Assembly (NCBI GenBank): GCA_002245135.1
Contig: NGBS01000603.1
Coordinates: forward strand, 1-64,000
DNA from: Proteromonas lacertae
Lineage: Eukaryota
Direction of reading: 5' to 3'
Length of the DNA stretch: 64,000 bases
Part shown: positions 1 through 58,629 of the stretch, one piece after another
How positions within the stretch are numbered: the first letter of the stretch is position 1
Layout of the letters: each line of letters opens with the position of its first letter
Program-made: the position numbers and the translations under genes
The notes under the pieces: generated by a model
Seen by the model: the letters and a program-made list of their open reading frames with translations, nothing else
What the model was told of the DNA's origin: nothing
The model's database searches: none

Positions 1-1188
1 AGCAAGAGTTACATCCAGTTCTACGTTGACTATTACGGTAACAATGGAAAAACTATGGAACCTGATATTAAGAATGCTGATAAGTCAGGGGATTGGAAGT
101 TCTTTTACGATACTTACGTGTTATCCAACTCTTATAACTTAACCGAGATCAAGGTCTACAACTCCAATGGAGTTCAGTTACTGTATGCAGATCATCAGTA
201 TGAGTTGTTCCGACAAATGATGGTTCAAGTGGCAAGGAAGAACATTGATAAGTATAATCAGAAGGTTTACTTTGATGGTTGCTATGCCGAGGAAAGCAAA
301 GACACTGAGGACTATGAAGTCATGGAGTTTAAAGTAGAAGAATTAAAGGACGGGCATTACCGACGTCTAGTAAAGATCTTCCTTGGAGAGCTCTTCAATA
401 CAATACTTAGTTCAGCAACAGATGTCTTCTTCTCGGAGAAGCTATTCATCACTTTGAGATTCGGTAAGGCTGATGGTTTCTACAACCCTAAGGAAAGTAA
501 GAGTACTAAGTTCAATGAGATGAAGGATAGCACAGCTAAGGATATGACCGATCCAGTAAAAGCAAAGATGATAGAACCCAAGGTAAAAGTTAGCCTAGAC
601 AACTTCTACTTCTACGTGAAGGTTAACAAGGATCCAGCCTGTAATGACAACACGATCAAGTATTGCCTTAACAAGACAATTGACTTCAATGACTTCCATT
701 GCTTTACTGTCACTAGCAGCTCCGGCATGGACTTCTTTCGATATACCTTTACCTTGAATAGTAGTCTCGGTAAGTACATCAAGTTCATTGCCTATCGTCC
801 TTATGATGGGAACGACAAGATCCAGAAGCTAGATAAGCAAAGTACTAAGTTCAGATGGCTTATCAATGACTTCCAATACAACCCAGACTTTGTTAACCTC
901 AAGGACTATGATAACTACCACATGATAAAGCCTTTGCTAGCCTGTAGCTGGCACGATCAGTACAACTACGTTCAGGAGGAAGATAAGTTCATCGAGGTAC
1001 TCAACTTTAGTAACTTTGGCTTATTCGATCTCCAAAATAGACAAGGCAAGAGAATGGATCAAGATATTAAGTTTACCTTTGAGATGTACTCCGACACCCT
1101 CAAGACCGAGAACATCTTCCATCGCTTCTACGTGGTCACTGGCCGAGGAGCTACTGTCAATGAAAGTGGTATCGTGAACATCATCTAA
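1..1188 (+). CDS. Putative double-jelly-roll major capsid protein, 5'-partial
   Basis: Frame is open from nt 1 (SKSYIQFYVDY... precedes the Met at 55). Motif order resembles Polinton/PLV MCPs: LTEIKVYNSNGVQL, VKIFLGELFNTIL, KLFITLRF, VSLDNFYFYV, IKFIAYRP, FRWLINDFQY, FGLFDL, DIKFTFEM, C-terminal FYVVTGRGATVNESGIVNII. Confidence 0.6.
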   Translation, partial: SKSYIQFYVDYYGNNGKTMEPDIKNADKSGDWKFFYDTYVLSNSYNLTEIKVYNSNGVQLLYADHQYELFRQMMVQVARKNIDKYNQKVYFDGCYAEESKDTEDYEVMEFKVEELKDGHYRRLVKIFLGELFNTILSSATDVFFSEKLFITLRFGKADGFYNPKESKSTKFNEMKDSTAKDMTDPVKAKMIEPKVKVSLDNFYFYVKVNKDPACNDNTIKYCLNKTIDFNDFHCFTVTSSSGMDFFRYTFTLNSSLGKYIKFIAYRPYDGNDKIQKLDKQSTKFRWLINDFQYNPDFVNLKDYDNYHMIKPLLACSWHDQYNYVQEEDKFIEVLNFSNFGLFDLQNRQGKRMDQDIKFTFEMYSDTLKTENIFHRFYVVTGRGATVNESGIVNII

Positions 1189-1615
1189 AGGACGATGATC
1201 GGAGAGATCACCTCATACTTGGGATAGATGATATCGATGGAAGGAGTTCTCTTGATTGTGAGCTGATGGTTCTTTACCCACAAGACAACTTCCTTATAAG
1301 TGCAGTCCTTATCTATCCCGTGTAGATCTTTGACTTGCTTAACGTTATCGGGAGAGGCTGGTAAAGCAACATTGTACTTTGCCTGAATCTTGCATTGCTT
1401 CTCGCAATCATTAGCATCTGGTTCTTCAACTCCTCGGAGATGTTCCTCCAGCACTTGAGCTCTCCATTGTTGAATCGTAGGAAGGTAACATTCAGGAGCT
1501 GGATGATGAAGTTCTTGTCAGTCTCAATGATCTGGTGAATCGTTCCTCGGAGTTGTACTTGCCATTGAAGTGCATAAGGAACACTTACAAAGATGTTATT
1601 ATCGGTGCTATCCAT
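1185..1615 (-). CDS. Hypothetical protein of the viral-like element, about 143 aa, split by one frameshift near 1454
   Basis: ORFs 1313-1615 and 1185-1454 join as ...FNNGELK/VLEEHLRG... if one base is restored; its stop overlaps the capsid-like ORF stop at 1185-1188. Confidence 0.55.
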
Positions 1616-1686
1616 AGACGATTGAACCCAATATCAAAAGTTAATGATAATCAGTAAAGCCTTAAGAAGAAGTTAAGTACTAGGAA

Positions 1687-1753
1687 TTAAGCCGATGTTG
1701 AAGTCATTGAAATAGCTGCTGGTTGCTCAGGGTTCTGAGGAGTCTCTTGAGGC

Positions 1754-1787
<34 letters not shown>

Positions 1788-2613
1788 GAACTCCTTGAGG
1801 TGCAACTACTTGAGTAGGAGTAGGAGTAGGAATAACTACTTGAGGAATCATCCCTTGAGGGAACTGAGGTTGTGGAGGCTGATAAGCATTCATGGAGATG
1901 TCCTTGATCTCGTAATGAGGAAAGATACGTACAGGTTGAATAAAGTTACCTCCTGTTGTAGTTCCATCGCTAGACACTTCCTTACCGGGATAGATAACTG
2001 CATCCTTGATCACTAGCAAGAACATGAAGACTTTACCGACGTTACTATAGATGTTCTGCTTAAAGGCCAAGAGCTTCTTGTTGCTTCTCTTCCAGAGAGT
2101 TGCATTGAGAGTACCTGATCGAGGAGTTGAAACATAGGTGGTGTTGGTGATCTGAAGATGCTTAGGGAAGGTTGGATCTTGTTGAGTTGCCATAGCCACG
2201 TTGTATCGTAAGCTCTTGATAAACATCTCGGTGTTGTTGGAGTCAATGAAGAAGGACATCACCCTGGTAACATTCAACTGGAGGTAGTAGTTGGTATCAT
2301 ACTCGGAGATCTTTTCAACCATGGCTTCAACATAGAAGTGTACTTGATCTTGCTTAAGGAAGTAGTGCCAGTACTTACCACAGATACGGAGCTGGGGCTT
2401 CTCAGGTTGTAATTGTCGTTGTTGCTGGGCAGCTCCGGGAAATGCAAAGGAATTTGAAGGAGCCGATGGAGACATCATCATCACTGGCTGGGATATCACG
2501 GGTTGATTCATCATTGGTAAGACTGAAGCTGGATTGAAAGAAGGAGCTGTCATAGGAGCAGGCATTGCTGGGTAAGGAACTTGTTGCATAGCTGGTTGAT
2601 TGAAAGAGTTCAT
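1687..2613 (-). CDS. Hypothetical protein of the viral-like element: P/Q/M-rich termini around a roughly 170-aa globular core
   Basis: 308-aa intronless ORF with the same codon bias as its neighbours; poly-Gln tract. Confidence 0.7.
1755..1788. repeat. (TTG/CAA)n microsatellite encoding poly-Gln
   Basis: Run of tgttgttgt... seen directly. Confidence 0.9.
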
Positions 2614-2668
2614 AGGAAACGATAAAGTAGTGAAAGATAAGATCGACCAAGAAATATATGACTGAAGT

Positions 2669-2879
2669 GAACCTAAGAAGGAACCTGAGAAGAAACCTTC
2701 AAAGGGATCGTAGAACCATCCTAGTCTTTACAATTGGTTTCCACGGTTCTGTAGATGAACTTTTCTTTGAAAGAGTTCTTCTCGTAGAATACTCCTTGAA
2801 GATCATCCTGTAAGAGATCTTCCCGTAGGGAAAGTAGACCCCGTTGAGAAGTAGACCCTGTTAGGAGGAATCCCGTAGG
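2669..2879. repeat. Subterminal short direct repeats
   Basis: GAACCT(A/G)AGAAG at 2669 and 2681 with a partial third copy; AAGTAGACCC at 2832 and 2849; TCCCGTAGG at 2821 and 2871. Confidence 0.8.
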
Positions 2880-2888
2880 AACCTTACG

Positions 2889-3090
2889 TAAATGGGACTA
2901 TGGTACATTATGCCAGAGTTCTAACGAGTGTTCTAGGAGTCCGTCCCCTTCTAGATTCAGAGTTGACCTTTACGGGAGCTTCATCGATGCAATCGATGAA
3001 GCTCCCGTAAAAGTCAACTCTGAATCTAGAAAGGGACGGACCCTAGAAAACTCGTTAGGACTCTGGCATAATGTGCCAGAGTCCCATTTA
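2889..3090. repeat. 202-bp imperfect inverted repeat (hairpin)
   Basis: Arms 2889-2988 and 2992-3090, loop GCA; manual alignment gives 6 mismatches and 1 indel. Confidence 0.97.
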
Positions 3091-3184
3091 TATACTATAT
3101 ATAAAAAGTGTTATAAAAGAAAATGAATGTTCAAACTCGTTTGACATTTTAAAACCAAAAATCAAATTTACTCAATATATTGTG

Positions 3185-5041
3185 ATGTTTGTGATTTATT
3201 ACAAGATTATATTTCCTTTGTTTTTTGTTTATTTTATTTCTGTGGTTGTTTGTTTAAGAATAAGTGATGTAGAAAGAAAAGAGTATGAAGCAGGAGAGAG
3301 AGTATATTTTTCTATTTGTTATTGATAGATTGATATATGTGCTAGTAGATTTATATCTGCTAAAACTAGAATGCCAATGAGGCACTATTTTCTTCCCGTG
3401 AGTTGTTTGGAAGTTAAATGGTGTTTATACAATTTGTTTTTATCTAAATATTATGATAGAACTTATTCCTGTGAGTTCAATATGTTGAGAAGTAAAAATT
3501 TTATAGTGGGAAGTTTTTATATATCAAACATTGGATATGCAGAACACTTGCGTAGATTAATAAAAAATGATAATGATATTATTTTAATAAAAGAATTTAT
3601 TGGAGTGGAAAGACTATCCTTAATAAATTCAATTAAAAATGATAAAGATTATTATTATGAGAATGGATATATATTTGGTAAATATGATAATAGAAACTAT
3701 TATATACAGAATCATTTATCATTTATAATAAAATATGAAAAGATTAAAGAAAAAGAAAATCATTATAGAATAATGGAAATAGAAATAAAACCATCAACAA
3801 TGAATAATAATGTAAGTGTATGTGATAAAAATACATTTAAATACTACATTGATGAAGATGATACTAAAACATCGCTGATGATTTTTCATACTTACAGTGT
3901 TGAATATATAGAAGAATCAAATATAAGAAATGATGTAAATATAAGCATGAATGTTGAAACAGTTAAACCTAATTGGTTTAAATTTGGTTTATCAATGATA
4001 ATAACTGTGATAATAAACACTGTAATTGGTTTAATAATCTTTCGAAGAGTAGTTGAAAATATTTCAAGATATAATATTCATAATTTTGGTAGTTATTATT
4101 ACAATAGTAATTATAGGGGAAAAGATGATGATTTAGAAGAAGAAAGTGGTTGGAAATTACTTCAAAAAGATGTATTTCGTCCTCCACTAAATCATCCAAA
4201 GTCATTTACAATAATCGTATCATCAGGTAGATCAATGTTCTATACAGCCTTTCTTTGCTTTTTTATAATCTATTTGCGAAATTATTTTACTCAGTTTATA
4301 GACATATTTTATTTCTATATATCTCTTCAATGTATCGAAGGATCCACTAAATATTCAATTTATTCATACAAATCATGTGGAGGTAATAGTGTAAAGAGTT
4401 TGATAAAATACATATTATATTACATTCTTTCTATTATAATAATTATATTTTCATTTAGTTATTTAATCTCTTATAAAGTACTTTTAGAAGATTTTGGATT
4501 AACATTGTTATGGTTATTTACATATATAGTTGTTGTAATTTTATTTACAAAAGCTGGAACATTTATTGGATTTAATCAAAAAATATATAAAGAATTTGTA
4601 ATTAACCAAATACCTCGTGAAATTAAACCACAACCATGGTATAGAAAAACAATTCCATCAATGTTATTATCTGGATTATTACCATTTATTGAATTTATGA
4701 TGAATTATCATTTCTTCATTAATTCCAATTATCCTCAAAAACAATATGTACATTTTTTACTTTTCATGATATATACAATGAGTTTGATTTGTTCTTGTGA
4801 AATGTGTTTGATTTTTTGTTATTATCAATTAAATGGAGAAGATTGGAATTGGTGGTGGAGATCCTTCTATACAGGTGGTTCAATATCGATATATATGTTA
4901 ATATATACATTATTATATGGAATTGAAAATTTATCATTAATGTGGTTTTTCTATATTATATTATTTCTAATCAATGGTTCAATGGGATTCTATTCGTGTA
5001 TGTGGTTTATTGTAAAGATATATTCTTCTATTCAAATTTGA
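3185..5041 (+). CDS. Transmembrane 9 superfamily (EMP70/TM9SF) protein
   Basis: Signal peptide, KEYEAGE, intron 3302-3328, EESGWKLLQKDVFRPP, NQIPREI, LSGLLPF, EDWNWWWRSF, KIYSSI. Confidence 0.93.
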
Positions 5042-7829: not shown

Positions 7830-10800
7830 TTAATACCTGTTATTTAAATATGGACATTCTTCCATATGTTTTTTAAAAGCTTTCTTCTCTTCAACAATCT
7901 TGCAGTATTTGTATTTCAAATCTTCTATTTCGTCAAAAAAATTAGAATCAAATGCACTTAACTCATTTCTTAATTGCATATTCACTATCTTTTCATCTTC
8001 CAACTTCTTTTTCAATACTTTGATCTCTTCATTCTTATCTTTTTTCATATTCTCTAATTCATTTTCTAATCGGCTCATTTCCTTTGCATTACTATATTAT
8101 AATGCAAAAATATATTATTATATACACAGCAAGAGGAGGTTCTTTCTTTAATATTTCTATCTGCTTATTTGCATCACTTAATGCATTTTCTAATTCTCTA
8201 AGTCTACTGGCTCTTTCTCCTGAGCTTCTAAAATACATAAATGCATATTATATTATATTATACCTTTCTGATTTATTCTTCATAATTATATTATTAGCTT
8301 CTTCTAATTCATTTTCTAATGAGCTTATTTTTCTCTTCAATGAAATATTATCTGATTCTAATAACAATAACTGCTTTTGTTTTTCTTTTACTTGATTCTC
8401 TGTATCTACCATTACATTTTGTTTCTTTTGTTGTATGTATTTACCACTTTGTTTTGAAGCTAACTGATTCTATGCAATTATTATATATATATATTTATTT
8501 ATTTATATATACTCTTAATTCATCCATTTCTTTCAGATATTGATTATTTAATCGTTTCTGTTCTTTTAAGTCATTTTTCACTTTCATATACTATTGAAAC
8601 ATTAGGTTATATATTATTATTTATACTTCTATGTTAGTAATACTGTTATTCTTCAATCTTTCTATTTCTATTTTCTGTTTTTCAATTACAGTTTTTAATC
8701 CATCAATTACACTTTCATAATCTCTTTCTCGTTTAAATCTTTCTCCAGGTTTTCTATCAGTCTATTTTATATAATAATAATAATAATAATACAATTGGAC
8801 TATCTCTTCCAACTACAGTTTTGTATTGTTCTAAATCAGCTATTCTTCTTCTTAATGAATTAATTTCAGACTATTTTGTTATTATATTTTGATAATAATT
8901 ATACCATCGAAGATTCAGCTTGGAATTTCAGTTCAAGATTCTCATTCTCCAGTTCCATTACTCGATTCAAAGTATTTTCAAGCTTTTCACTAAGTATTAT
9001 ATTCTATATAATAATAATAATAATAGAATATAAATATACCCTATCTTCTCCACTATATGGAGCAACTTTTCCACCAGTCGATGTTTCACCAATTTCTTTC
9101 CTCAATCTTTCATTATCACTAGTCAAACGATCAACATCATTCTGAAGTAAATTAATTTTGTATTTCAATTTGGTTATATTCTGTTCTTGATCAACTTCAA
9201 CTTGCCTTTTTAATTTGTTATTCTCTTCTTCTAGTCGGAATATTTCATTCTTATATTCTTGAACTCTTTCATATTCTTTCAATAAGTCTTCTTTTGTCAT
9301 TTCAGAATTTATATCTTTCTTCTTTTTCATAGTTCTATCACCTTGTAGTTGTTTATTTCTTCTTCTTTCTTCATCTAAATTCTTTTCAACAACATCTAAC
9401 TGTTGTTTTATTTCAGTAAACTTCTGTGTTAATATATCATATTTCTTTGTTATTTTGTTCAATTCACTTTTTGTTCTTTTTAATTCAATTTCTTGATTTT
9501 TGTATAACGATTCATATCTATTTGGAGATATATTCGTTTTCTCTTCAGATCTCGATGGTGGTTCTGGTAATGCTGGAGATTCTTGTATTGGAACAGCTTG
9601 AATAGATTCTAATGCTTTGTTGGCTATTGTCAATTTCTTTATTTCTTTTTGTAGTTTGAGTATTTGTAGATCTTTTGCATTATCTTCCTTTTCTTCATTC
9701 ATTGTTTTTCTTTTTGATTGTAATAGTTCTTTTTCTATTTTTTTCGTTTTTCCAATTATTTCTGATTTTTGATCTTCAATTCTTTGTATTTCTTGTCTTA
9801 AATTATCTCTTTCATTCCTATAATCATCTACTTCCTTATGAAGATTATCAACATCACTCTATTGTTATTATTATATAAATTAATATATAATATTTAATAC
9901 TTGTAGTTTTTTAATCTCTTCATCACTTTCATTCTTCACTTGTTTGACTTTATCTTTTACAGTTTTTAGTTTGTTTTTAAGTGACTTTACTTCATTTTGA
10001 AGGTTGTTGTTTTCTTCTTGAACTTGGATTGTTCTTTTATCAACTTCTCTATCAACATTACTTTCTAAATCACTTATCTTTTTCTATTCAAATAAATATA
10101 ATAATAACAAAATACCTTATTATCTTCATTTATTACTTTTAATTCCATCACTTTCTTCTCCAATTTCGCTAATTTTGTTTTATAATCATTTTCTACTTCA
10201 TTTAATGTTCTATGTATCTTTTCAGGTTTAAATTTCTTTGTAGATGAATTCATTGCATCTAATCTATCTAATTTCTCTTGTAATTCATCTACACGAATAT
10301 GTAATTGTTTATATTGTTCTTCAAATCGATCTCTTTCATTTTGAGCATGATCCAACTAAATAATCAATAATGAATTATAATAAATATACTTGTTGTTCTA
10401 AATGATTTATTACATTTCTTGATTTAGCCAACTCATCTTCACTCATTTGACATCTATCCAATAATTGTTCATTTATCTCTTGTATTTTCTGTATAGTTAG
10501 TGCTTGTTTAGTGGGAGAATTATTATTTGGCCCATTTAATAAATTGTCATGTAATCTTTCAATTTCTGCATTTTTATCTTCAATTATTTTCTTATATTTC
10601 TCATCATATTGTTTTCTGATCTTTTCTCTTTCTCCTGTTAAATTATTTCTCATGTCTTCGATTTGTTGTTCATACTGTTCAATCACTTTTTGTTTTTCTT
10701 CAATAATTGCCTAATAACAATAATAAAAACAATAACATGATAAAAATATATATACTTTTGTTTGTTCTATAGTTTGTTTCGCTAAATGATTATCATTATT

Positions 10801-12890: not shown

Positions 12891-15569
12891 TACATCTTTT
12901 GGTCTATGTTTCAAGTATTCTTTCATAATATTATCTTGTGTTTCAATCGTATACATTGCTCCTTTCTTCCACAGTTCTAAATATAATACTCTATACTTCA
13001 ATGTAGTCTCAATATTCACTAATCGATAGTTCAACTTATTATTCTCATCCTCCAATTGATTACATTGTATTTTATAGTATCTCTTCTCTCTGTCTAATTT
13101 CAATTTATCTACCTCTGAAGCTGCATGTTCTAATATTAACCTATTCTTATCACTATGTGGATCATTCACATCTAATCTCTTCTTATATTCATTATTGGCT
13201 GTCTCAAACTCCTGAAGTTCATTTTGTAGCTTTTCAATCATTTTGTCTTTCTCTTCAATTGTTTCATTGTATGATTTTACTTTTTTATGATATTCTTCAT
13301 ATAATTGATATTGTATATCTAAAAATTGAGTTATATTCTTTGCATATTGTTTCAAATTATTGGATATTTCATCCAAATCAACATCTTGTGCATATAATTC
13401 TTCAACTGTATATAATAATAAACCATAAATATTAATCAATTCATCTTGAATCTCAGGTGGATATGATGATATCAAGTTCTTATACTCTTCAAAGAATCTT
13501 ATTCCACTTAATCCTTCAGGATTCAATCCATTTGGATCAATTGTTATACCAATTTGTTGGTTTTGTAAATTGTTATTATTATTCGATGGACTTAATAATC
13601 CTTGTCTTGAGCCAGGACTGAATAGTGATCTTCTACTACCATAACCTGCTTTATATAACATTGATTGACGTGGATTCATTGGAGCTGTATTATCAAGTAT
13701 TTCTTCTTCTATTTCATCTAATCTTCTCATCTATATATTTATATATTTAAATTATTATTATACGATTTCTGAATTATCTGCATTACCACCTCCTTGCATT
13801 GGTATTGTAACTGTAGGTGTATTATTCACTTTATCTTTTAACTCTTGAATTAGATTAATCAAACTGTCATATTTCTCATTTGAAATATTATCATTATTTG
13901 TATTGTTATTTAACATACTGTTTCTTAACTTATCTAATTTCTCTTCATAGTCATTTCGTATATTACTTATTTCACTATCATATTCTCTTTTCTGTTTGTG
14001 TAATTCATTCTTTAATCTTTGTATTTCTTCTTCACTTTCTGCTAATCTTTCTTTATATTCCAATGGACCAAGTAATTCATCATTATTTAATAATGCTTCA
14101 ATAAATGCTAAGACCTTATTGATATTTTGATAACTTAGTTTTGGTAAATCTGGATTATTATAGCCCAAATATTGACAAGCTCTATTTCATAGTAATATAG
14201 GAAATTAATATATACTCTAACACAGCTTGTAATCTCTTATTCTCTTCTTCTAGGTTATTACAGTAAGCAGCTAAATCTACACCTGGTTTTAGTAGATTAA
14301 CATCATTCACATTACTACCTTTAAAGTTATTAAACTCATCAATTGGAATGTTATATTTCTTATGTAAATATTCAATATATTCTCTTAAATGACCATAGAA
14401 TTTATCATTTACTTGTTTATCTTCTTCTAGTCTCTATTCATTATTAATAATATATTAAAATACTCTTATTTCTAACTGCAAGTTGTTATTCTCTTCAATA
14501 GCACGTTGTAATCCATCTTCCTTAATATCTCCATTGTATATCTTTTCCAACATCTCCTTCTCATTCGTTACTTCACTCAATTCATTCTCTAATTGTTCAA
14601 TATTACTTCTTAGTATCACAATCTCACCTGGAGCAGCTGTTCTAACTATACCTGGAGGTGGTTGTCCTCCTTTTTGACCTGGACGAAGTGAATTCTTCTC
14701 TCTATCCACCCATTCTACCACTAACTTTGCATCTTCTTTGTATTGGTCGATTTGTCTTTTGTATTTTTCTATTTCATTTTTTAATCTTTCATTCTCTTCC
14801 TGGTATATATTTGTCACTGGAGCTGCTCTTGAACTTTCTGTACTACTTTCTAAACCACTTTCGTTTAATTTTTCTAAGTTCTTTTCTTTTTCTAATCTTA
14901 ATTCATTTTCTAATACTTTTATTTGATCATCCATTTTATTGATCTCCTCTTTAAATTTTCCCATTTCTAACTTATCATTATCGATTTCCTGCAATAATAG
15001 GTAATTTTCGTTTTCTATTTCCTGAAAATGTTTTTCTTTTTCTCTCTCATCTCTTATGGTTTGTTGAAGTTCGCCTACATTTCGTTCTAATTGACTAATT
15101 TTCTCATCTTTTTCTTTTAACTGTTCTTTCATCACTTCATTGTCGCTTTGGATTGTAGATGATTGTTGTGATAATTCTTTCAATAGATTATCTTTTATTT
15201 CATATTTTTTCTTTAATTCTTCACTTAATCTCAGAATAGCTTCATATTCTTTTAATAAGGAAGTATATTTAGCTTTAGGTACAACAGTTGGATCTTCGGC
15301 CTTATTTTTTGATCCTTGTTGTTGAACCATTTCCTGTAATTTTTGATTTGTCTATTGAATAAAGTAAACCAAAAATAATACTTCGAGCAATAACATCTTA
15401 CTTCTATTTTCTTGCTGTAGCTGGTCTTCGATTTCTTGAACTCTTCTCTGTAAACGATCAACCTCCATTTTCTTCTCATTATACTCAGAAGTTAACCGAT
15501 CGATTTCTCTCTTCTGATATTCACTATATAGAAATTATAGATATCATAGAAAGCTTACAATTGACTCAT
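7830..15569 (-). CDS. CEP290: CEP290-like centrosomal/transition-zone coiled-coil protein, many exons
   Basis: Chain of coiled-coil exons separated by tiny introns; C-terminal LSAFDSNFFDEIEDLKYKY matches the conserved CEP290 tail motif. Confidence 0.8.
12844..12890. repeat. (TAA)n microsatellite inside an intron
   Basis: About 15 TAA units between the minus-strand GT and AG. Confidence 0.9.
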
Positions 15570-21465: not shown

Positions 21466-23432
21466 TCAATTTAATAATGAATTTATGGATCTCTTCTTCA
21501 TTTTTGGCCAATCAGGATTAATCAACTCCAATTCAGGTAAATCAGTATAATCTATTTCAATATCAGGATAATTACTAATAGTTTTAGTAAAATTCTCTTT
21601 TGAATAGCATTTTTCACAATAATCATTAACATTAAACTTATATTTAGCTATACAATAACAGGCATGTTTACATGGTATTCCAAAGTATCTATACTCACCA
21701 CAATTACAATATTTTTTCTTCAAATCAGTAATATAATTCACAACTTTCTTTGTATTCTTTGTTGTCTCATTTACTTCATATTTTCCTTCACTTATTTTCT
21801 TTGCTGTTAATCCAACATTATCATTACTGTTTTCACATATTTTATTATATATTTTATCATTAACTTGATGTTCCCATGAATTCATAATTTTTTCTCTTTC
21901 CCTTTCATTTTCAGTGACAAATCTGTGAATAAACAATGGAATTAAAGGAATAAAAACATATGGAATCTTTCCTAACAAAGTATTAAATTCTGATACTAAT
22001 TTATTACCTAAATTTCCATATAGTTTATGTTTAATTTCAAATCTTCGCCATGGTCCTTCTATTCCTTTTAAATAATTCAATAAACAAGTGTTTATATGAT
22101 TTGAATTATATTTTTTCTTTTCTAAGTCTTCAATCATTCTATCATATTCATCTTTTGTTTTACATTTCCCTAATTCAACTATTTTATCAAATGTTGAGGT
22201 ATTTGTATCATTTGAATTAATAATACTTTGACCAACTGAAGTTATTGTTGTTGTTGTTGTTGTTGTTGTTGTGGTAGAAGATGTCATATTTGAATTACTA
22301 AATAGTTTATTCTTAAAATCTGAAGCAACACAGCATAAAGAATGAATATGTTCAACTGTTGGATAAACTGATTTTATTGCTTCATTTACACCATTATTAT
22401 AATCACTACAAAATGCAAATTTATCCTCATCATCCCCATCTTCTTCATTATCATCATCATCTTCTTCAGTTTCCATTTTTTCAACGACTGGTGGTGGTGG
22501 AGGTGTTGGTTGTTCTAAAGCATTGGTATTATCTTTTTTTGATCTACCTCCCTTTGTTCTATTATTACTAGGAAGAGATGATGAAGCAGAAGAAGAAGAT
22601 TCTACAATTGGCAATGGAATAGCATTTGTATCTTCAGTTCTTTGTGGATATTCCAATCCTTTGTATTTCAAAAACTTAATAAATTCTCTCCAATTTTCTA
22701 CGTTTTCTTTTTCACAGATACTATATCCTAATAAACAGATTTTATTACATCCATCAATCACTAATGCACACAATAAAACTCCACCTAAACTACTTCTTAA
22801 TTCATAAGATGATAAATAGATTATTTTTTGATATAAATTTAAGTCTTTTAATACATTTTCATACACTGCAAAGAAACTGATGAATCTGTTTTTATCTGTT
22901 TTAATGTGGTATTGGAAAGATGGACATGTAAACTGTATTTTACTCAATAATGATCTTAACTTACTAAATTGTTTTTCATCACTTCCAAAACAAATATCAA
23001 TAATTCTTCTTTTATAATAAGAAGCAGTTGTTTCTGTCATTCCTTTCTTTGTCTCAGCTTTTACAATTCGAATTAATCTAGATGGAGGTAAATAGGGTTC
23101 TTTAATGAGAACTGGTATTAAAATTTTGTAAATTTGTTTTGGAGTCAATAGTGGTCTTGCTTTCTTAGGTGGATCACCAATATCTAAGGATTTTTACATA
23201 TTTATAACGATACGAGTATGATTCTAGAAAAACTTTCTTTAATTTTATTGAGCCATCAATTTGCAAACGTCCTCTCAAGAATACTTTGCAATCCTTCCAT
23301 ATACATTCAAAATTATAGTATTGTCCAGTCCTGAACGAATGTAATTTTGATCCATCTATCTTTTCATATTCATGAACTGACTCTTTAAAGTCTTCATAAG
23401 AAGCAAATTTCGTACCTACTTTAAGATCCATA
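21466..23432 (-). CDS. MuDR/MULE transposase-derived protein with SWIM zinc finger
   Basis: LKVGTKFASYEDFK MuDR N-domain, GGVLLCALVIDGCN, EKENVENWREF, FCSD, CNCGEYRYFGIPCKHA SWIM; intron near 23185-23214 plus a 1-nt frameshift near 23220. Confidence 0.88.
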
Positions 23433-34155: not shown

Positions 34156-36075
34156 ATGAAGTTTTGTTTATTTATCAGCCTATTGGTAATATCTATAGCT
34201 GTGGCTAGTGATATGAAAGTATTTTGTGTGGATCGATCATCCTACAAAGTAGGAATATGTATTGACAGCAATTGCGAGAAATCGGTGACGCCTTTGGAAG
34301 TGTGTTATAAAGAAGGTCAGTCAATTCACTTCGATGTAGATGGACAAACTAAAGATGTCATTTGTAAGAATCCACAAGTAGTTTGCCAAAATTCTTTAGT
34401 CGCAAATAGAACATTAATGGAAGTAGATAAAGAAGCAAATACTGAAGATAGTACAGAAGGAACTGAAATTGAAAAACCTACTCAAACAAATCCAACTACT
34501 CCAACTTTTAAGCCAACTACCATTCCACCAACAACTGCTGCTCCTACATCTGGATTACCTGATCAACCAATAGTTATACCAGAAGATATTACTGATGTTA
34601 TAAGTGAAAACAGTCAGAAAATAATACAATCTAAGATAGAAGAACAAGCAAGACTTACAAAACAAGAAATAAAAACTCAAATAATGGCGGAAAAACAAGC
34701 ATCAAAGATTATCAATTCAAAACCATTTGCAAATTCAGAAACAACTCAGAAATTCGTTAATTTAATAAACAACACAAATGATTATATCATATTCACATCA
34801 ACAGAAGCAATAGATATGCAAGAATACAGTAAAATAGATTTAAATGAAAAAACTTTAAATGGAAATAATCAGGAAATAATCTTACAATTTAACACTAAAA
34901 AGACAAGTCAAAAAACAATAGAAAGAGTGTTAGAAGATACAACAACATATGAAAATGATAATATCATATCACTTCAATTATTTAGTGAAGTTAATAATAC
35001 AATAATAAAAAATATCAAAATATCAGTAATTGTTAAAGGTTCAAATAATAATTTAAATCCATTAGAAGTAAGAGAATGTGGTATATTTGGTAAATTAAAT
35101 AATGTTACTCTACAAAATGTAGTTGTTTTATTTTACAATCCAATTACATTCAATTGTATGAATAATGAAGGTAAAACTGCTGGAATATTAGTAAATGAAG
35201 CTACAAATTCAATATTCAATAGAGTAAAGGTAGAATTTGCTAATTTTGGAAATGGTTTAGTGTATCTAAATACAACTGATAAAAGTATGGGGTTATTAGT
35301 TGGTAAAGGTGATAATATTACTATTAAAAACACAAATGTAATTGGTGATTCTTTAATTGCATATGGTAGTGGCAATAATAATGGTTTATATGTAGGAGGA
35401 ATGATAAGTGAATTAAATGGAGTAGATAATGTGATTGAATCATCATACGTTGATTTATATTTCTTAAGTTTATATAAGGAGATTAATTATGGTGGTTTAA
35501 TTGGTGTTAGTAAAGGAAGTGTGAAATTTGATAAAGTTTATAATTATGTTAGAAAAGGAATGACTATTGGTGTTAAAACTAAATCTACTTCATTCTCATT
35601 TGGTGGATTAATTGCTATAATTGAAGGAAGTAATGTTGATGTTGTTGATAGTTGGGTTTCTATTAAAACATATGGAATTGAAGCGAATAGTACAACTACT
35701 TCTTTTGGTGGTTTTATTGGTAATAGTAATGATAAAGAGATTAATATATTAAGATCATATGTAAGAATATATACAGGTCATAAGAGATTTATCTTACAAT
35801 CAAATAAAGAAAAGAATGATGGTGTTAAAGTTGGTTATTATTTTGGAGATATTAAATTGAATGAAGAAAAGAAGAATTTAGTATTAAATGAAACTGCTGC
35901 TTATGTTCAAGGATGTACAACTATTGATTGTGTTTATGAACCATATTATAAAATTGGTATTTACTCATCAAATCCTAATACAAGACCACCAGAAGATAAA
36001 AGAATATTAACTGATCCAACTTACATAAACTTAGTTACAGGAGAAGGAGCAATTCCTGCTAAAAATGATAGTAAT

Positions 36076-36114
<39 letters not shown>

Positions 36115-37351
36115 CCATTAGGTTTTACAGATAATATTCAAGAATTTGCTACTTTAACAGGAATGGAAATAGATGAGAGTGGATTGATAGGAAATCCAAA
36201 CAATGTTCAACCATTACCAAATTCACAAAGAGATACTGCAACTCCAACAATTATATTATCACCAGTCAAAGAAGCAGCAGTTGTTAAGAAACTATGTGAA
36301 AATAACTGCAACAATCATGGTGTATGTCAATATGGTAAATGTGTATGTTATCCAGGTTATTTACCATCAACTTGTTTATATAGAAGTTGTCCATATGGAA
36401 CATCACTCTCCAATCCATCTAATGAATATGGAAAAGATGATAGAGTAAATTATGAATGTTCCAATCAAGGTAAATGCAATAGAGATACTGGATTATGTGA
36501 ATGTTTTGCTGGTTATGAAGGAAATGCTTGTCAAAGAAAGAGTTGTCCAAATCAATGTAGTGGTCATGGAGTGTGTGAAACAATTGGTAATGTTGAGTTG
36601 GTTGATAATTATAATAATATGATTATTCATAATGATAAAAATTACATGAAATGGGATAAAGAACATATGCAAGTATGTGTTTGTGATAAAGAATATACTG
36701 GTTATGATTGTTCTCAGAGTATTATATATATATATATATATTATTTATTTTATCATTTTAAATAGAAAAATGTCCATATGGTTATATTCAAGGAAATGAT
36801 TGTGAAGCTGGAGAGTTTTCATCAATTGAAATAAAAATATCAAAAACAAGTCTTACTATTGATTGCGCTTCAACTACATCAAAATGTGTATTTGAAATAT
36901 ACAGATTTATGGGGAAGAGAATGGTATACTGAGAAATTCAATGTTGGATGTAAAAGTGCTTGGGAACAAGCAATTGGTAAATTACCACCAGGTGTTATAT
37001 CATTAGATCCAAACTATGGAATAGAATTTGATAAAACTAGTAGTACTACAACAGATTTAACTGTTACTGTAATGTTTTCAAAACATCAAACTGGAAGACA
37101 GAATGTGGTTGAAGTATTAACTGAAGAAAAAGTAAAAGAAATTCCAGAAATAAAGAATGGAGGAACATTCCACACAATTACAAATACAAATGACTTGCTA
37201 AAAGCTGTTGACTATTGATTATTCAATGGATTTAGTTTCTCCATCAGAAGAATGTAGTAATGCAGGGATATGTGATAGAAATACAGGTTTATGTAAGTGT
37301 TTTGAAGGTTATATTGGTAATTCTTGTAATCAAGCAAGTTCTGTTTTATAA
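34156..37351 (+). CDS. Secreted EGF-repeat protein of tubular-mastigoneme type with a long N-terminal extension
   Basis: Signal peptide; ECSNQGKCNRDTGLCECFAGYEGNACQRKSCPNQCSGHG, WD...CVCD..YTGYDCS, terminal ECSNAGICDRNTGLCKCFEGY. Confidence 0.75.
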
Positions 37352-37498: not shown

Positions 37499-38839
37499 TT
37501 AACCTTCTTCTCCATCAGCATCTGTTGCAGTTTGTACTTCCTTATAATCCATTTCTAAAGCAGCTAAATCTTCTCTAGCTTCATGAAACTCTTTATCATC
37601 CATACCTTCACCATAATACCAATGCAAAAATGCTTTCTTCTTATACAAACTGTCAAACTTTCTATCAATTCTTCTAAACACTTCAGAGATAGCTGTATTA
37701 TTAGATATCATACAACAAGCTCTTTGTACTCTTGCTAAATCACCACCAGGAACAACAGTTGGTGGTTGACTATTAATACCAATCTTAAATTCAGTAGGAC
37801 ACCAATCCACAAATTGAATTGTATTTTTCTTTGTTTTAATATTGGCAATTGCTGCATTAACTGATGATGTAGCTACATCTCCTCTGTACATACAACAACA
37901 TGCCATATATTTACCTTTCCTTGGATCACATTTAGCCATCATTGCTTCTGGTTCAAACACTTCATTAGTAATTTGAGCTTCTGATAATCTTTCCATTGAT
38001 GCTTTATGAGCTGAGATAATTGGTGAAAAACTACTTAATAAGAAATGAATTCTTGGATAAGGAACTAAGTTAGTTTGAAATTCAGAAATATCACAATTCA
38101 ATACACCATTGAATCTAATAGAAGCAGTTAATGTTGAAATAACTTGAGCAATTAATCTGTTCAAATTAACATAACTTGGTCTTGGTAATCCTAAATACTT
38201 ACCACAAACACTATAAATAGCTTCATTATCTAACAATACAGATACATCAGTGTATTCTAATAAACTATGAGTTGCTAATACTCCATTATATGGTTCTACT
38301 GGAGCTGTACTGATTCTGGGAGATGGGTAAATTGGGAATGATAATTTTGGCTTTTGAGGATAATCATTTGTTATTCTTTCTAATAAAACACTACCAAAGC
38401 CTGCACCTGTACCTCCTCCTACACTATGAAATACGCAGAAACCTTCAAGACCTTCACAATTATCAGCTAGCTTACGAATACGATCTAAACTAATATCAAT
38501 CATTTTTGGTGCAATATTTCTTACACCTCTTGCGAAATTGTTTGCAGCATCTTCTTTTCCACTGACCAATTGTTCTGGATGGTATAATGATCGATATGTT
38601 CCTGTTCGAATTTCATCAATCACAGTTGGTTCAGAATCCATATAAACACATCGAGGTACATGTTTCCCACCAGGAGTGACATCAAAGAATGTATTTTCAC
38701 CACCACCACCTCCTCCATAACTATCACCAGGAGTTACACCATTTGGTTGGATTCCATGCTCCATACAGAACAATTCCCAACAAGCATTACCTGTTTGACA
38801 ACCTCCTTGACCAATATGCAAGCAAATGATTTCTCTCAT
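37499..38839 (-). CDS. TUBA: Alpha-tubulin, divergent, intronless
   Basis: [56 protein letters not shown]. Confidence 0.96.
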
Positions 38840-39003
38840 CAATAAAAAGAAAGATAAAGATTAAAAATTGTATAACTGAAAGATATGGTTATTAAAAAAT
38901 ATCTTTTCAAAAACCAAAAATTATTAAAAAGTCAAATATCTCATCATATATTGTTTATTATCCAACAAAAAATTATATAAAACTATACATAACAATAATA
39001 AAA

Positions 39004-42804: not shown

Positions 42805-45800
42805 ATGAGTACAAGTAATACAAGCACTAATGATGGAGAATTTAAAGCTGTACACTCCATAGTATTATATTAATTAGGATGGTGAAGATGAAGCCAGTAA
42901 TGAAAGGCCAAAGGATATAGGTATAGCTATTATATTCTATTTTATATTTCAATTTTTAATTATATACTATAGCTTGCCCATTTCCTGATAGCGTTGTTCC
43001 TTCTGGCTCATATAGCATTCCTCAATCATTAGTTCCAGGTGGTAAATATGTTGAGGAAAATTATCCAGCTGAGGAAGGTGATGGCGATAATCTTTCAAAC
43101 AATAGTGACAACTATCCAGTAGAAGTAAAAAATAATGAAGAAAATGGTGATAAAAATATATATGAATCAGTTTCACCTCCATGTACATCAAAAACTCCTT
43201 CAGTTAACAACAGCATTGATTATAACCATATTGAGGATAATAATGGTAATACAAATCAAGCAATTAATCCTCCCCTTACTCCACCTCCTGGTTCACTTAA
43301 CAACAGCATTGATTGCAAACATGTAGAGAATAATGTTGTTGTTGATGATGATGATGATAATAATATTCCACCTCCTCATACTACTCCTAGAAATAATAAT
43401 CTTGAGAATAAACACATTCAAAGTAATAGTAATAATGATGAAAATAAATCAAATCGAAGTTTACTTTCACCTCGTTCACTTAGTTCAAGTGTTGAAAATA
43501 ATAATGTGAATAATGACAATACTAATGATAATATTCCACCTCCTCATTCACTTAACAATAGTGTTAAGAATAATATATTTGAAGATAATGATAAAGATGT
43601 GAAAAGAGAATCAATTCCTCCATCAAATACTACTACTACTACTTCAATTCAATCAGTAAGTAATAGTAAGGAAGGTGATATAAGAAATAGTCAAAGTGAG
43701 AATAGAATAGATGAAGATGCTCTTCCCCCTTATACACCTAAAACTAATAATAATGAAGTAAATGATGATAAAGATGTTAGAAAATCAATTTCATCCATCA
43801 GATACTTCATCTACATCAGTTGAAACTACAGGTTTTCGACCTTCAGATAGTATTATATCTACGAATAATCAAATAAATGAAGAGGAGGTAAACGAAGATT
43901 TAAATGCAAGTAAAGAATCAAATACTTCTACTGGATTTAAACTATCAGAAAGTATAGAAACAAGGAATAATCATATAAACGAAGAAGAAAAAGGTGAAGT
44001 TTTAAATGCAAGTAATCATTCAAAATCTTCATCATTATCACATTCTGAAATAGTCGAACCATTAGGAGAGACAAAACCAAAAATGAAAACCACATTAACT
44101 CGTCAAGATAGTGTTGAAAGTGATTATGCTAGTCTTATCTCTCCAAATATTAATAATTCCGTTAATCATAATAACGAACCTCCATTAAAACCACCATCAC
44201 CTCCTCCACCTCCTCCTATAGATCAAGATGTGGATATGGAAGAATCTATTCTTCCACCAAGAACAATTCCTACTTCTGCTACTAGAGATAATGATTCTAC
44301 TCAACAATTAGTGTTTAATAATGAGAAGAAGAAAATTGTATTTAATCCACAAAATATTCCACCTGAGACAATATTTAATACACCACCAAAGAATCAGCCA
44401 ATTATTCCACAACCTTTAATAGAGAATAATGTCCAACCACCTAGTGATCATATAAATGGCGAATGTAATAATGATTCAATGGAAGGTGGTATAATTCCAC
44501 AACCTAATATCAATCAGTTTAGATTACCACATAACAATTTTGCTGAGTTAACAAACAATGGTACAAATACAACACCACCACTTACTAATCCACCTATAAT
44601 GAATAATGATAATAATGATGATGTTCCACCTCCATATACACCACCATCAAATGGCAATTCAAATATTCAACCACCATTTGCATTTAATCCTCCAAATAAT
44701 AATCAATTTATTCCACCATTCAATAAACCAGAGAATAATAATGGTGATGTTCCACCTCCATTTACTGTAAACCCATCAAGTACTGCACCACCATTTATTG
44801 CTTAAACCTTCAGATAATAATAATCAATTTATTCCACCATTCAATAAACCAGAAACAAATGATGATGTTCCACCTCCATTACTGACACCACCATCAAATG
44901 GCAATTCAAATATTGCAACCACCATTTGCATTGCTCAATCCTCCAGATAATAATAATCAATTTATTCCACAATATCAACCTTCAAACAATAATTCAAACA
45001 TTCCACCTCAAAACAATGTGAATGTTCAACCACCAATTTGCATTTAATCCTCCAAATAATAATCAGTTTATTCCACCATTCAATAAACCAGAGAATAATA
45101 ATGGTGATGTTATTCCACCATCATTCACTGCAAATCCATCAAATAATCACAATTCAAATATTCAACCATCACCACCACAAAGTCAACCAAATGTTAATCC
45201 AATATTAAGATTTGCTCCACCTCCTCCTATTCAACAGCAACCACAACAATTACCACAACAACAACAATCAAAACAACCAACAACCTCAAGTTAAGAATTA
45301 TCCAAAACAACATCAACATATTCCTAAACAAGAATCAATACCATGTAAATGTGGAAATAGAGATTGTACTATACCAAACTGTACAGTTCAAAACAATCAA
45401 ATTATCTACAATAGTACTTATTGTAACAAATTAAAAAACAAAATGATTATTAGAAATTCAATAAAATGTGATTGTGCAAATCCAAATTGTATTGGTGTAA
45501 TAAGAAATACAATTATTTACAAAGATGAGCAAGGTAATTTACAATTAGAAAAGAATGCTGTTATTGATCCAACATCTTCTGATCCTCATCATCTTCAAAT
45601 AATACACAACGCTGTATTATGCCCATGTGGTAGATGTAATAATTTTATTAAAAATTCTGTTTTATGTCCATGTAAAAACAAAGATTGTCCTGGAGTTATT
45701 TTCAACGCTGTATTATGTAATTGTGGTGGTTATAACTGTCCTGGTTATATTGAAAATGCAGTGCCTTGTAATTGTAATAACCCAGAATGTCGTGGTTATA

Positions 45801-54818: not shown

Positions 54819-56564
54819 ATGTCACTTTCTTTTTTTGGAAGGTTAGGTAATGATGTAACACCAAATGAGGATATGGAATCAGTAAGATCGTTTGCTTTTT
54901 TATTTTTCTTACTTTGTTTAGTTCTTTGTTTGGTTGCAGCGTATTAACACTCCAATCTTTATATTTGATAGATATAAATTAAGAAAAATAGCATCAGACT
55001 ATATACCAGAGCCAGGTGTTTATATTCTGATAGGATTCGTTCTCTCATTAATCATTCATGTTTCTGAAACAAAATTTAAGATGTCTGAAGTAATTAATCA
55101 GTATCTAGTGTTTGAGTCTGATATTTTCTTCATGGTACTATTGCCGATAATTATCTTTGAAGCAGGGTATTAATAATCTTGAATTTACTTATTATTAGAT
55201 ATAACATGAAACAAGATTCATTCTTTTATAATATAGGATCAATCATATCAATGGCATTTGGTGTGACAGTAGTAACAGCTTTCTTTATTGGAGCAGTGTT
55301 ATATGTTTTAGGTGTATGGAATTGGATTCCAGAATTCTCATTTATAAACGCATTAACATTTGGTTCAATAATTTCCGCAACAGACCCAGTTTCAGTGTTA
55401 TCATTATTCTCAAAATTAGGAGTTGATAATTCATTACATTCAATAGTCTTTGGTGAAAGTGTATTAAATGATGCAGTAGCAATGGTGTTATACAAAACAC
55501 TCTTAGTATTTCAAAAAAGTGAATTTACATTTACAACTGTAATAAAAGGAGTTTTTTCATTTATTAGTGTGTTTTTAGGTTCATTCAGTAGTGGAGTATT
55601 AGTTGGATGTTTAAGTGCTTTGTTATTTAAATATTTAGATTTAGTTGGTTCTGAAATGAGAGATTTAGAGAGAGGTTTGTTGTTTATTATTCCATTTATT
55701 TCTTATATGTTTGCTAATGGTTTGGATATGAGTGGTATTGTTTCAATGTTATTTTGTGGCATGACGATGTCTCATTATACATTTCATAATATTTCACCTA
55801 AAAGATATCTTTTTTTTCTTTATTCTTTTTTTTGAATTAATAATAAATGAAATTATTTCTTTAATATATATTTTTTTACTCGTCATTTTTTTAGAAGATT
55901 ATACACATTAATGGCTGAATTGTGTGAAACAATGACTTTCATTATCTTAGGTGTGTCTTTATATTCAATATTAGAATATATGAGTATTTCTTATACTTTA
56001 ATGTTTTTATCTATTCTTATTATTTTTATATCAAGATTATTAACTGTAATCCCATGTTGTGCTTTATTAAATTCCAAAAGAAAAGATAAAATAGATGGTA
56101 AAACTCAATTGGTATTATGTTGGTCTGGTTTGAGAGGAGGGATGGCTTATGCATTGTCTATAGAAGCAATGGATAGTCTGAATGATAAGACTCAAGCCAA
56201 ATTAATTGTTGCTATGACTTCTGCATATATTATATTCTCTGTTTATATTGTTGGAGTTACTTTAGCACCTATTTTAAAAGCTTTTCATATGTTTGGAGTG
56301 GAAAGTAAACCAATTCCTGTTAGTATATTTTACTATATATATATTTTAGAACATTTTGAAAAGCCTAGTAGGATTGATTGGAAGAATTTCTGTAAAAATT
56401 GTTGTACATGGCAATTTTTAGATAATGTTTATTTTAAACCTATGTTTATAAAGGAACAGCCTACTATGGATATAGATATTAATGATGATGTGTTAAGTGA
56501 TTTTGAAGATGATGATTTTGATGATTTTATACCCGTTCCAACTACTCCATCCAATAGAAAATAA
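54819..56564 (+). CDS. Na+/H+ exchanger (CPA1/NHE), copy 1
   Basis: LLPIIIFEAGY, GSIISATDPV, FGESVLNDAVA, WSGLRGGMA. Confidence 0.93.
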
Positions 56565-56711: not shown

Positions 56712-58629
56712 ATGAAACATCAAACTCTCAAACTGACGATGAAACAGCTTTCTCATTTTCACTAATGTTATTTTTATTTGGCTTACTACTCTCATTACTT
56801 ATTGCGTATATTTTAGTAGTATATTTGTAATAGATACAAGGCTAGAGAGAGCGGTTGTGAATACATTCCAGAACCAGCTTGTTATATTTTGATTGGGTTT
56901 TCATTATCATGTATTGTACATCTTACAGATAAAATGAGTATACTCTCAAAATTGATGGAGAAGTATTTGGTTTTTGAATCAAATATCTTTTTTTACTTTC
57001 TTGTTGCCAATTATTATATTTGATTCTGGGTATAATTTTAGATATATATGTAATTAATAGGTTTAATATGGGTAATATAAAATTCTTTCAAAACATTGGA
57101 TCAATCTTAGTATTAGCATTTATAAACACATTTTTAACTGCTTTATTCATTGCAATATTATTATATTTTGCATCATGGGCAAGTTATATTCATTCATTCT
57201 CATTTTTAAACTCATTTTTATTTGGTTCAATTATTTCAGCTACAGATACAATTTCAGTCCTTTCCATATTCTCGAAGTTAGGAGTTGATGATACGCTTTA
57301 TGCATTAGTATTTGGTGAAAGTATGTTTAACGATGCTGTGGCTATCGTTTTATATAAATCATTAATTTCATTCCAATATATTGGATTTAAGTGTTGGTAG
57401 TTTAATTCATGGAATTGTTTCATTTTGCAGTATTTTTTTAGGTTCTTTAAGCTGTGGAATATTAATGGGATCTTTAATAACATTATTATTTAAATATACA
57501 AATATCCATTATCCTAGAAATAAAGATTTTGAAAGAGCTTTATTATTAATCACTCCATTTTTATGTTATATGTTTGCAGAAGGTTTGAGTATGAGTGGAA
57601 TTGTTGCAATGTTATTTTGTGGTATTGTAATGTCAAGGTATACAGAACATAATATGTCTGGAAAAACATATCATTTTTATATAATATTGCAATAAAAGAA
57701 GATAATCTAATTATTTTCTTTAATAATAATTTACAAGGCATTTTTTCAGTAGATTATGTTCACTTTTAGCTATGATATCTGAAACATTAACTTTTGTTCA
57801 TTTTAGGTGTTTCAATCTATTCAATTATTGATTTAATGTTCAGATATTATTTACTTATGTTGATTAGTGTTGGAATTGTTTTTATTTCAAGATATATGTC
57901 GATATATCCATCATGTATACTTGCTAATGTAAATAGGAAAAATAAAATATCCAAAAAAGTAATGTTTATATTATCATATGCTGGACCAAGAGGATCAATG
58001 TCATTTGCTTTAGCAATCAAAGGATTAGAACAAATATTAGATGAAAATCAAAGTTATTTAATAATTGGAATGACGACCTAGTTATATTATTTTTTCTATT
58101 TTCATTATTGGAGGTAGTTTAGGTCCAATATGTAAAGCAATGAATTTGAATAATGATAAAAAAGAAATTATTGATATTATGAGTCCTAGATCATTGTCAA
58201 GTATTATTTATTGTTTATTATTATTATTATTTATAAATAGTACCAGGCGAAGATGATGAAGAAGAAGCAGTAGTAGAAGATGAAGAAGGAAAGATAATAG
58301 AAGAAGGTAATATAGATGGAAATATAATAATAAAAGAAAAAGAAAAGCAAGAAATATCATGGAAATCTTTAATTCATAATTTCAATTGGAAATATCTGGA
58401 ACATAATTACTTTAATCCATTTTTGCTGAGAGACTATGAACAATTTGATGATGATAGTAATGATGAAGATGATGAAGAAGAAAATGAAGAAAATTATAGT
58501 GATGTAATTAGTATCACAACTAATGATGATTATTATAAACTAAACAATAACATTATAAGTGAAAGAGACACTGATGAAGCAATTGAAGGAGAGAATATAA
58601 AACTACTGAATAATAGAGATGAAGAATAG
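56712..58629 (+). CDS. Na+/H+ exchanger (CPA1/NHE), tandem copy 2, with apparent frameshifts
   Basis: GSIISATDTI, FGESMFNDAVA, YAGPRGSMS; similar exon layout to copy 1; frame breaks near 57003, 57390 and 58080. Confidence 0.85.

Follow-up and report, generated by a model that had tools for sequence, protein, structure and literature searches.

A long imperfect palindrome, probably a viral hairpin end, at an element–host junction in Proteromonas lacertae

Hairpin and palindromic ends in described viruses

Palindromes at the ends of small integrated viruses were described in July 2026 for Halocafeteria seosinensis (bioRxiv 10.64898/2026.07.28.741278), where, in the available text of the preprint, they lie at the extremities of the terminal inverted repeats (TIRs), beside the target-site duplication. 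According to the same text, they occur in all complete virophages of subtypes 1, 2, 5, and 6 and in subtype 4 of the Polinton-like viruses (PLVs); the TIRs of the PLVs have a mean length of 485 bp. The palindrome-bearing elements mostly encode replication genes other than pPolB, and hairpin priming has been proposed for them. For the length of the palindromes, the main text states a single value, 52 nt in subtype 5, and the screen allowed at most four mismatches (10.64898/2026.07.28.741278).

Terminal hairpins are also found in much larger viruses. In poxviruses the mismatches of the flip/flop hairpins serve virion maturation, as stated in the available part of PMC8956199, and flip/flop hairpins have been reported or proposed for asfar-like viruses and chloroviruses (available parts of PMC11814242 and PMC11788076). 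As far as these sources describe them, such ends are AT-rich and belong to large, non-integrating genomes, with concatemers cut by a resolvase and mismatches used for packaging.

Parvoviruses, including AAV, have rolling-hairpin ends, whose terminal resolution is performed by an HUH nuclease. Their genomes are single-stranded, their capsids are of the single-jelly-roll type and the tips of their hairpins are branched. The rolling hairpin is named as a precedent in the available text of the Halocafeteria preprint (10.64898/2026.07.28.741278). Mriyaviruses and their PLV-sized relatives (Zoravirus/VC102, VC218) encode HUH nucleases, some together with a retroviral-type integrase, and so own the enzyme pair needed by the mechanism proposed below; in their available parts, neither of the two reports mentions hairpins or palindromes (PMC11253617, 10.64898/2026.06.19.733378). 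In the available parts of PMC11296320, PMC12085832, and PMC11161782, these words appear for giant viruses or in references only. Classical Polintons/Mavericks are characterized by a protein-primed PolB and terminal inverted repeats, a 100-bp fold-back not being part of their definition. Searches of the openly accessible literature found flip/flop ends described for neither PLVs nor virophages.

Here we describe a palindrome located in a 64-kb window, the whole stretch of 64,000 nt that was analyzed (positions 1–64,000 of contig NGBS01000603.1, assembly GCA_002245135.1, Proteromonas lacertae). Like the palindromes of Halocafeteria, as the available text presents them, it lies at the extremity of a putative capsid-type element, beside stramenopile host DNA, within a non-coding end of similar size (477 nt vs. 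485 bp), and the same hairpin priming may be proposed for it. In contrast to the 52 nt given in the main text for Halocafeteria, it is 202 nt long (about fourfold) and has six substitutions, a bulge and a nested mini-hairpin, and the G+C content of the element is above that of the host, a further difference from the Halocafeteria case. As the Halocafeteria screen was limited to four mismatches, a palindrome like that at 2889..3090 would appear shorter there. An integrated capsid-type element with a terminal hairpin was regarded as an unusual combination in the preliminary description of this locus; that combination is known, having already been published for Halocafeteria (10.64898/2026.07.28.741278), and it is the length, the mismatches and the nested mini-hairpin that set this locus apart from the case described there.

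The locus shares with the telomeres of poxviruses, asfar-like viruses and chloroviruses, as far as the sources describe them, a terminal hairpin with about six mismatches, the duplex form of which is an imperfect palindrome. Unlike those telomeres, the palindrome has a G+C content of about 45%, is joined to host DNA and is known from one integrated copy. Its pairing is incomplete (six substitutions and one bulge), as in pox-, asfar- and parvo-type ends. As for parvoviruses and AAV, nicking and extension of a terminal hairpin would yield a palindromic duplex end like that at the junction, and the small stem-loop near the hairpin base recalls the AAV nick site. The tip of the palindrome is, however, a plain 3-nt loop rather than a branched structure, and no HUH gene is seen in the 3.1 kb of the element in the window. 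Common features with classical Polintons/Mavericks are the integrated state, a likely double-jelly-roll capsid gene and the non-coding end.

The palindrome and its genomic setting

The 202-bp imperfect hairpin reported earlier at 2889..3090 is real, and its anatomy is given in Table 1.

Table 1. Features of the element, the palindrome and the adjacent host DNA. Positions are those of the window.
Feature	Position	Strand	Description
ORF1	1..1188	+	ORF call; capsid look-alike in ESM Atlas
ORF2	1185..1615	-	Two overlapping frames, frame change near 1485
ORF3	1687..2613	-	308-aa orphan; reads inward, away from hairpin
Sub-terminal stretch	2614..2888		No ATG-started gene longer than 51 codons
Perfect 8-bp palindrome TTACGTAA	2884..2891		Covers mirror image of outer end (2888/2889)
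Inner arm	2889-2988	+	100 nt
Mirror of mini-hairpin	2895-2921		Inner arm; disrupted by substitutions at 2900, 2904, 2920
Bulge	2938		Single unpaired A, inner arm
Perfect tip	2969-3011		43 nt: 20-bp stem and 3-nt GCA loop
Loop GCA	2989-2991		3 nt, asymmetric
Outer arm	2992-3090	+	99 nt; stops at G+C step
Nested perfect mini-hairpin	3058-3084		Outer arm; 11-bp stem, 5-nt loop; 6 nt from end
Substitutions (inner/outer arm)	2900/3079, 2904/3075, 2920/3059, 2930/3049, 2948/3032, 2968/3012		
AT-rich host intergenic DNA (target side)	3091..3184		94 nt
Host TM9SF/EMP70 gene	3185..5041	+	Pfam EMP70, E 2.7e-73

The predicted DNA folding energy of region 2870-3110 is -106 kcal/mol, compared with -21 +/- 3.5 kcal/mol in 200 shuffles, none of which folds as well (z = -24). 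This is the strongest inverted repeat of the whole window, and its tip is the sole perfect stem of at least 12 bp with a loop of at most 10 nt in the 64 kb. With its GNA sequence, the GCA loop falls into a class of stable DNA triloops, but its closing pair is T-A. No matches were found to the tip pattern in viral contigs, to the pattern of one arm in metagenome contigs, or to the hairpin pattern in plasmids. The mini-hairpin pattern gave four matches, with no likeness beyond the pattern itself, two of them in sequences resembling papillomavirus genomes. In Rfam the palindrome has no match at the gathering score; the only weaker one, mir-1743 (34.6 bits vs. a cut-off of 100), is a generic hairpin match. 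A scan for bacterial promoters and terminators re-found the mini-hairpin, although such a scan is not meaningful for this eukaryotic host.

The G+C content is 40-44% per kilobase in positions 1-3000 and 22-33% in each later kilobase. It falls from 42% to about 25% at the end of the palindrome, and the maximum-likelihood change point is located after base 3085, with 95% support for 3079-3091. The statement that AT-rich host DNA begins directly after the second arm, exactly at the junction, is thus true to within about 10 nt, the precision set by the change-point support. An AT-only stem of 8 bp with a 3-nt loop (3087-3105) straddles the junction; it probably arose by chance in AT-rich DNA, or else is part of a target preference. 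The TM9SF gene starts with an ATG at 3185, likely contains a 27-nt intron (3302-3328) and then remains open into the long frame, so that it is apparently undisrupted. The presence of AT-rich DNA ahead of this intact frame indicates that the insertion is intergenic and leaves the host gene whole.

Elsewhere, the window has the content of an ordinary eukaryotic genome, encoding alpha-tubulin, a kinase, proteins with TPR and EGF domains, and a flagellar protein of the DUF4200/CFAP100 family. The top named relatives of the latter among the matches listed are from stramenopiles, with about 50% identity, and one further, independently assembled protein matches it without gaps at 97%. The host is an AT-rich flagellated stramenopile. 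The TGTTTGTT motif, associated with Blastocystis-like hosts, is not enriched in the window (10 occurrences vs. 10 expected), and five proteins of the window have no letter-for-letter match in the protein collection. The alpha-tubulin (37499-38842, minus strand) is divergent: its loop near residues 43-48 contains a run of glycines and, as judged by reading, position 40, where acetylation usually occurs, is not a lysine. A SWIM zinc finger (E 4e-6) is encoded in a 560-aa frame (21466-23148, minus strand), which could be related to MULE transposases or could be a host gene. An intron-free 869-aa protein with teneurin-like EGF repeats near its end (34156-36765, plus strand) is probably a surface protein. 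Two diverged copies with 73-75% identity (55334-55815 and 57196-57678), about 1.86 kb apart, represent a tandem gene duplication with broken frames.

On the other side of the junction the window contains 3.1 kb of the element, that is, one end of one copy, with three genes filling bases 1-2613. No gene for replication, an integrase or a nuclease, and no target-site duplication, is seen in this part. The GC3 values of ORF1 (0.55) and ORF3 (0.44), compared with 0.12-0.23 in three host genes, bear out the view that a foreign, gene-dense element ends in the palindrome.

The preliminary description regarded this element as capsid-encoding. This is favored by one language-model look-alike search in the ESM Atlas, where ORF1 obtained a value of 0.96 (199 of 256 features) and fell among double-jelly-roll clusters in which 10-22% of the members carry Capsid_NCLDV/Capsid_N, several of the clusters being labeled Nucleocytoviricota; the recognition value of 1648 is weak evidence by the tool's own grading, and the other tests brought no confirmation. 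A search of 5.8 billion clusters at near and shorter lengths found no sequence relatives of ORF1, and neither did searches of viral contigs, metagenome contigs and solved structures; no Pfam or PHROG family was assigned to ORF1 or ORF2. The single-sequence AlphaFold model of ORF1 has a pLDDT of 37.5, and its fold search returned generic matches only. In hhalign comparisons with an NCLDV capsid profile, made from 76 of 80 listed loci, namely those with a frame of at least 300 aa carrying the motif, ORF1 scored below shuffles, but the Polinton-type control was barely above them (5.7 vs. 3.8 bits), so that the profile, like the fold searches, had no discriminating power. The predicted order of strands and helices in residues 5-156 is in line with that of a first jelly roll. 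From its sequence, ORF1 may tentatively be described as double-jelly-roll-capsid-like. The IMG/VR contig L127 (17.6 kb), a Polinton-type capsid control, itself contains a perfect internal palindrome of 32 nt (14452-14483) and two imperfect ones (2728-2758 and 10405-10438), with none at the contig ends.

ORF2 may have a minor-capsid-like look. The converging stop codons of ORF1 and ORF2 overlap by four bases (1185-1188), tail to tail. The ORF3 product is rich in Pro and Gln at its ends and in beta structure over a core of about 190 aa. It has no relatives among 1.84 billion representatives or in the atlas and matches no family; its single-sequence AlphaFold model (pLDDT 40.8) likewise gave generic fold matches only. 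No convincing HUH gene was found in bases 1-2890, where one HLH triplet occurs in a 72-codon shadow frame.

Together, the sub-terminal stretch and the palindrome form a 477-nt non-coding end after the start of ORF3, which is a candidate TIR. This length is close to the 485-bp mean in Halocafeteria, and no gene is cut, indicating that the palindrome caps a natural-looking end. The palindrome itself is element-like rather than host-like in composition, with 40-48% G+C in 50-nt steps. Its strength far beyond chance, its location at the G+C step and this composition all support the reading of a virus end, as do the weak capsid likeness of ORF1 and the corresponding arrangement in Halocafeteria. 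It is fairly probable that the palindrome, at the right end of the insertion, represents the terminal hairpin, in opened-out form, of a small double-jelly-roll DNA virus of the PLV or virophage type; membership among PLVs or virophages is likely.

The same composition argues against an independent palindromic MITE, or a solo scar, placed at the virus boundary by coincidence. Both the 202-bp length and the fold-back shape would suit a small non-autonomous element, but no second copy exists in the 64-kb window, 61 kb of which is host DNA, and there is no obvious flank duplication on the two sides of the palindrome. In addition, a 7-mer of the arms is repeated at 2821 and 2871, both in the sub-terminal stretch, but at no other site in the window; with 153 of 2000 shuffles giving as many repeats, this lacks significance. 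Judged from this window, an origin as a MITE or solo scar is improbable.

The position of the palindrome also bears on the idea that it served recombination or resolution rather than priming, as a protelomerase target, a tyrosine-recombinase att site or a poxvirus-like concatemer junction cut by a resolvase; this is the least probable of the readings considered here. An att junction should leave a half-site on each side rather than a whole palindrome with host DNA directly behind it, protelomerases act on cores that are short and perfectly palindromic, and beyond a concatemer junction another copy of the genome should follow. The visible 3.1 kb of the element contain no gene for a recombinase, a protelomerase or a resolvase. 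Against these points stand precedents taken from the available parts of the respective sources: in poxviruses, the A22 resolvase generates the hairpins by cutting imperfect inverted repeats (PMC8956199), mriyaviruses have a RuvC/A22-like resolvase along with the HUH nuclease (PMC11253617), and a tyrosine recombinase is encoded by many PLV-sized relatives (bioRxiv 10.64898/2026.06.19.733378).

Differences between the arms

The nested mini-hairpin of the outer arm is not expected by chance, as no stem of at least 11 bp appeared in 5000 shuffles of that arm. Its mirror in the inner arm folds with -3.5 kcal/mol, compared with -12.4 kcal/mol for the mini-hairpin. Since the mini-hairpin is perfect in the outer arm and broken in the inner one, the outer arm is ancestral at the 2900, 2904 and 2920 pairs, and the changes in the inner arm are polarized as C to A, C to T and C to T, respectively. 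Neither the clustering of three out of six substitutions within the nested stems (p 0.12) nor their clustering on a single arm (p 0.25) reaches significance.

The differences between the arms could be built in, decayed or erroneous. One rival reading is that the palindrome itself is an assembly artefact, produced by a long read that folded back or by chimeric joining, in which case the differences would be read errors. Residual indel errors are suggested by the frame change in ORF2 and by a Pro/Asn-rich host repeat protein (44600-45200), which shifts frame three times in about 250 nt (about 44800-45040), so that the assembly likely keeps indel errors in repeats; the shifts in this protein are likely residual long-read insertion errors, possibly a real pseudogene. 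Multi-copy viral regions are, moreover, prone to false consensus, according to the available part of PMC10120064. However, the arms differ by six substitutions and one indel, and the errors visible elsewhere in the window shift the frame and are not of the substitution type, which also speaks for built-in mismatches. A total of 14,970 nt in ten long host frames is open, which indicates that the assembly is mostly clean, and one of them is the gap-free 97% match mentioned above. The fold also stops at the composition step, with an intact host gene next to it. An artefact is thus quite unlikely; the substitutions are probably real, and the bulge at 2938 may be an assembly error.

If real, the substitutions may have been present in the virus or may have arisen after integration. 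The arm rate of 6 in 199 nt, applied to the 2535 coding nt of the element, predicts 3.6 (uniform) to 6.1 (GC-to-AT) new stop codons, while none is seen; the conditional p values of 0.058 and 0.015, respectively, come, like the others on mismatches, from tests picked after the data were seen. The genes have too few stops for even decay at the arm rate, which counts in favor of built-in mismatches. The element genes have one frame change vs. about 13 expected at the point estimate (p 0.14, with two indel events only). The seven differences are spread in such a way that no perfect run exceeds 20 bp (p 0.04), and this kind of spacing would let a long palindrome persist in a chromosome. Against built-in mismatches, all six substitutions pair G/C against A/T, the polarized changes from C to A or T match the direction of decay in an AT-rich host, and palindromes can mutate faster than genes. 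We give the presence of the six substitutions in the virus itself a little less than an even chance.

Later decay is also part of an alternative in which the palindrome arose once, as a fold-back scar restricted to this locus: an end that was broken or in the course of integration would have bent into a short hairpin around the GCA loop, copied itself over 100 nt and become joined to the host DNA, with the differences accumulating afterwards. The polarized substitutions and the single known copy are in line with such an event, and the available text of the Halocafeteria preprint offers accidental annealing after single-strand breaks as an alternative (10.64898/2026.07.28.741278). Still, the palindrome ends a non-coding, TIR-sized stretch instead of lying inside a gene, the element genes have decayed too little for 3% per arm, and in Halocafeteria, as reported in the same text, palindromic ends are common to all complete members of several subtypes. 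A scar of this origin is unlikely.

A proposed hairpin-transfer mechanism and its implications

The preliminary description proposed that the element replicates or integrates through a self-priming hairpin end, and a hairpin end remains the likeliest reading of a palindrome that is beyond chance and coincides with the G+C step at the element terminus. In the free form of such a virus, the end strand would fold back into a 100-bp stem with the GCA loop and would itself serve as the primer of DNA synthesis, in place of a terminal protein. The strand running toward the end would be nicked where the stem begins, at or near 2888/2889; the perfect palindrome TTACGTAA at this position is, speculatively, a candidate nick site. 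Extension through the unfolded hairpin would then produce a duplex palindromic end, twice the length of the stem, and an integrase would join this end to host DNA, giving the 202-bp palindrome at the junction.

Hairpin transfer would invert the palindrome in each round, so that flip/flop mirror forms should occur among copies if the substitutions were already viral. The mini-hairpin, being perfect in one arm, would lie outside in one isomer and inside in the other. The mechanism further predicts that the far end of the element carries this palindrome as well and that a protein-primed polymerase is lacking. A more far-reaching version, which we consider rather doubtful, is that a small integrating double-jelly-roll protist virus has a free genome with long, deliberately mismatched flip/flop hairpin telomeres like those of pox- and parvoviruses, that its resolved palindromic end is integrated whole, and that the one-arm mini-hairpin is a signal for the nick or the integrase.

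The locus bears on the question of how PLVs and virophages without a protein-primed polymerase copy their ends, for which hairpin priming was proposed in 2026. Hairpin transfer is nearly traceless in palindromes that are short and perfect. The palindrome described here has seven asymmetric positions and an asymmetric loop, making each inversion visible if the mismatches are built in. The hairpin-transfer model could therefore be checked from the sequences of copies within one genome, without bench work. If flip/flop forms exist, they would connect small integrating viruses, through the structure of their ends, with poxviruses and their giant relatives, which have hairpin telomeres.
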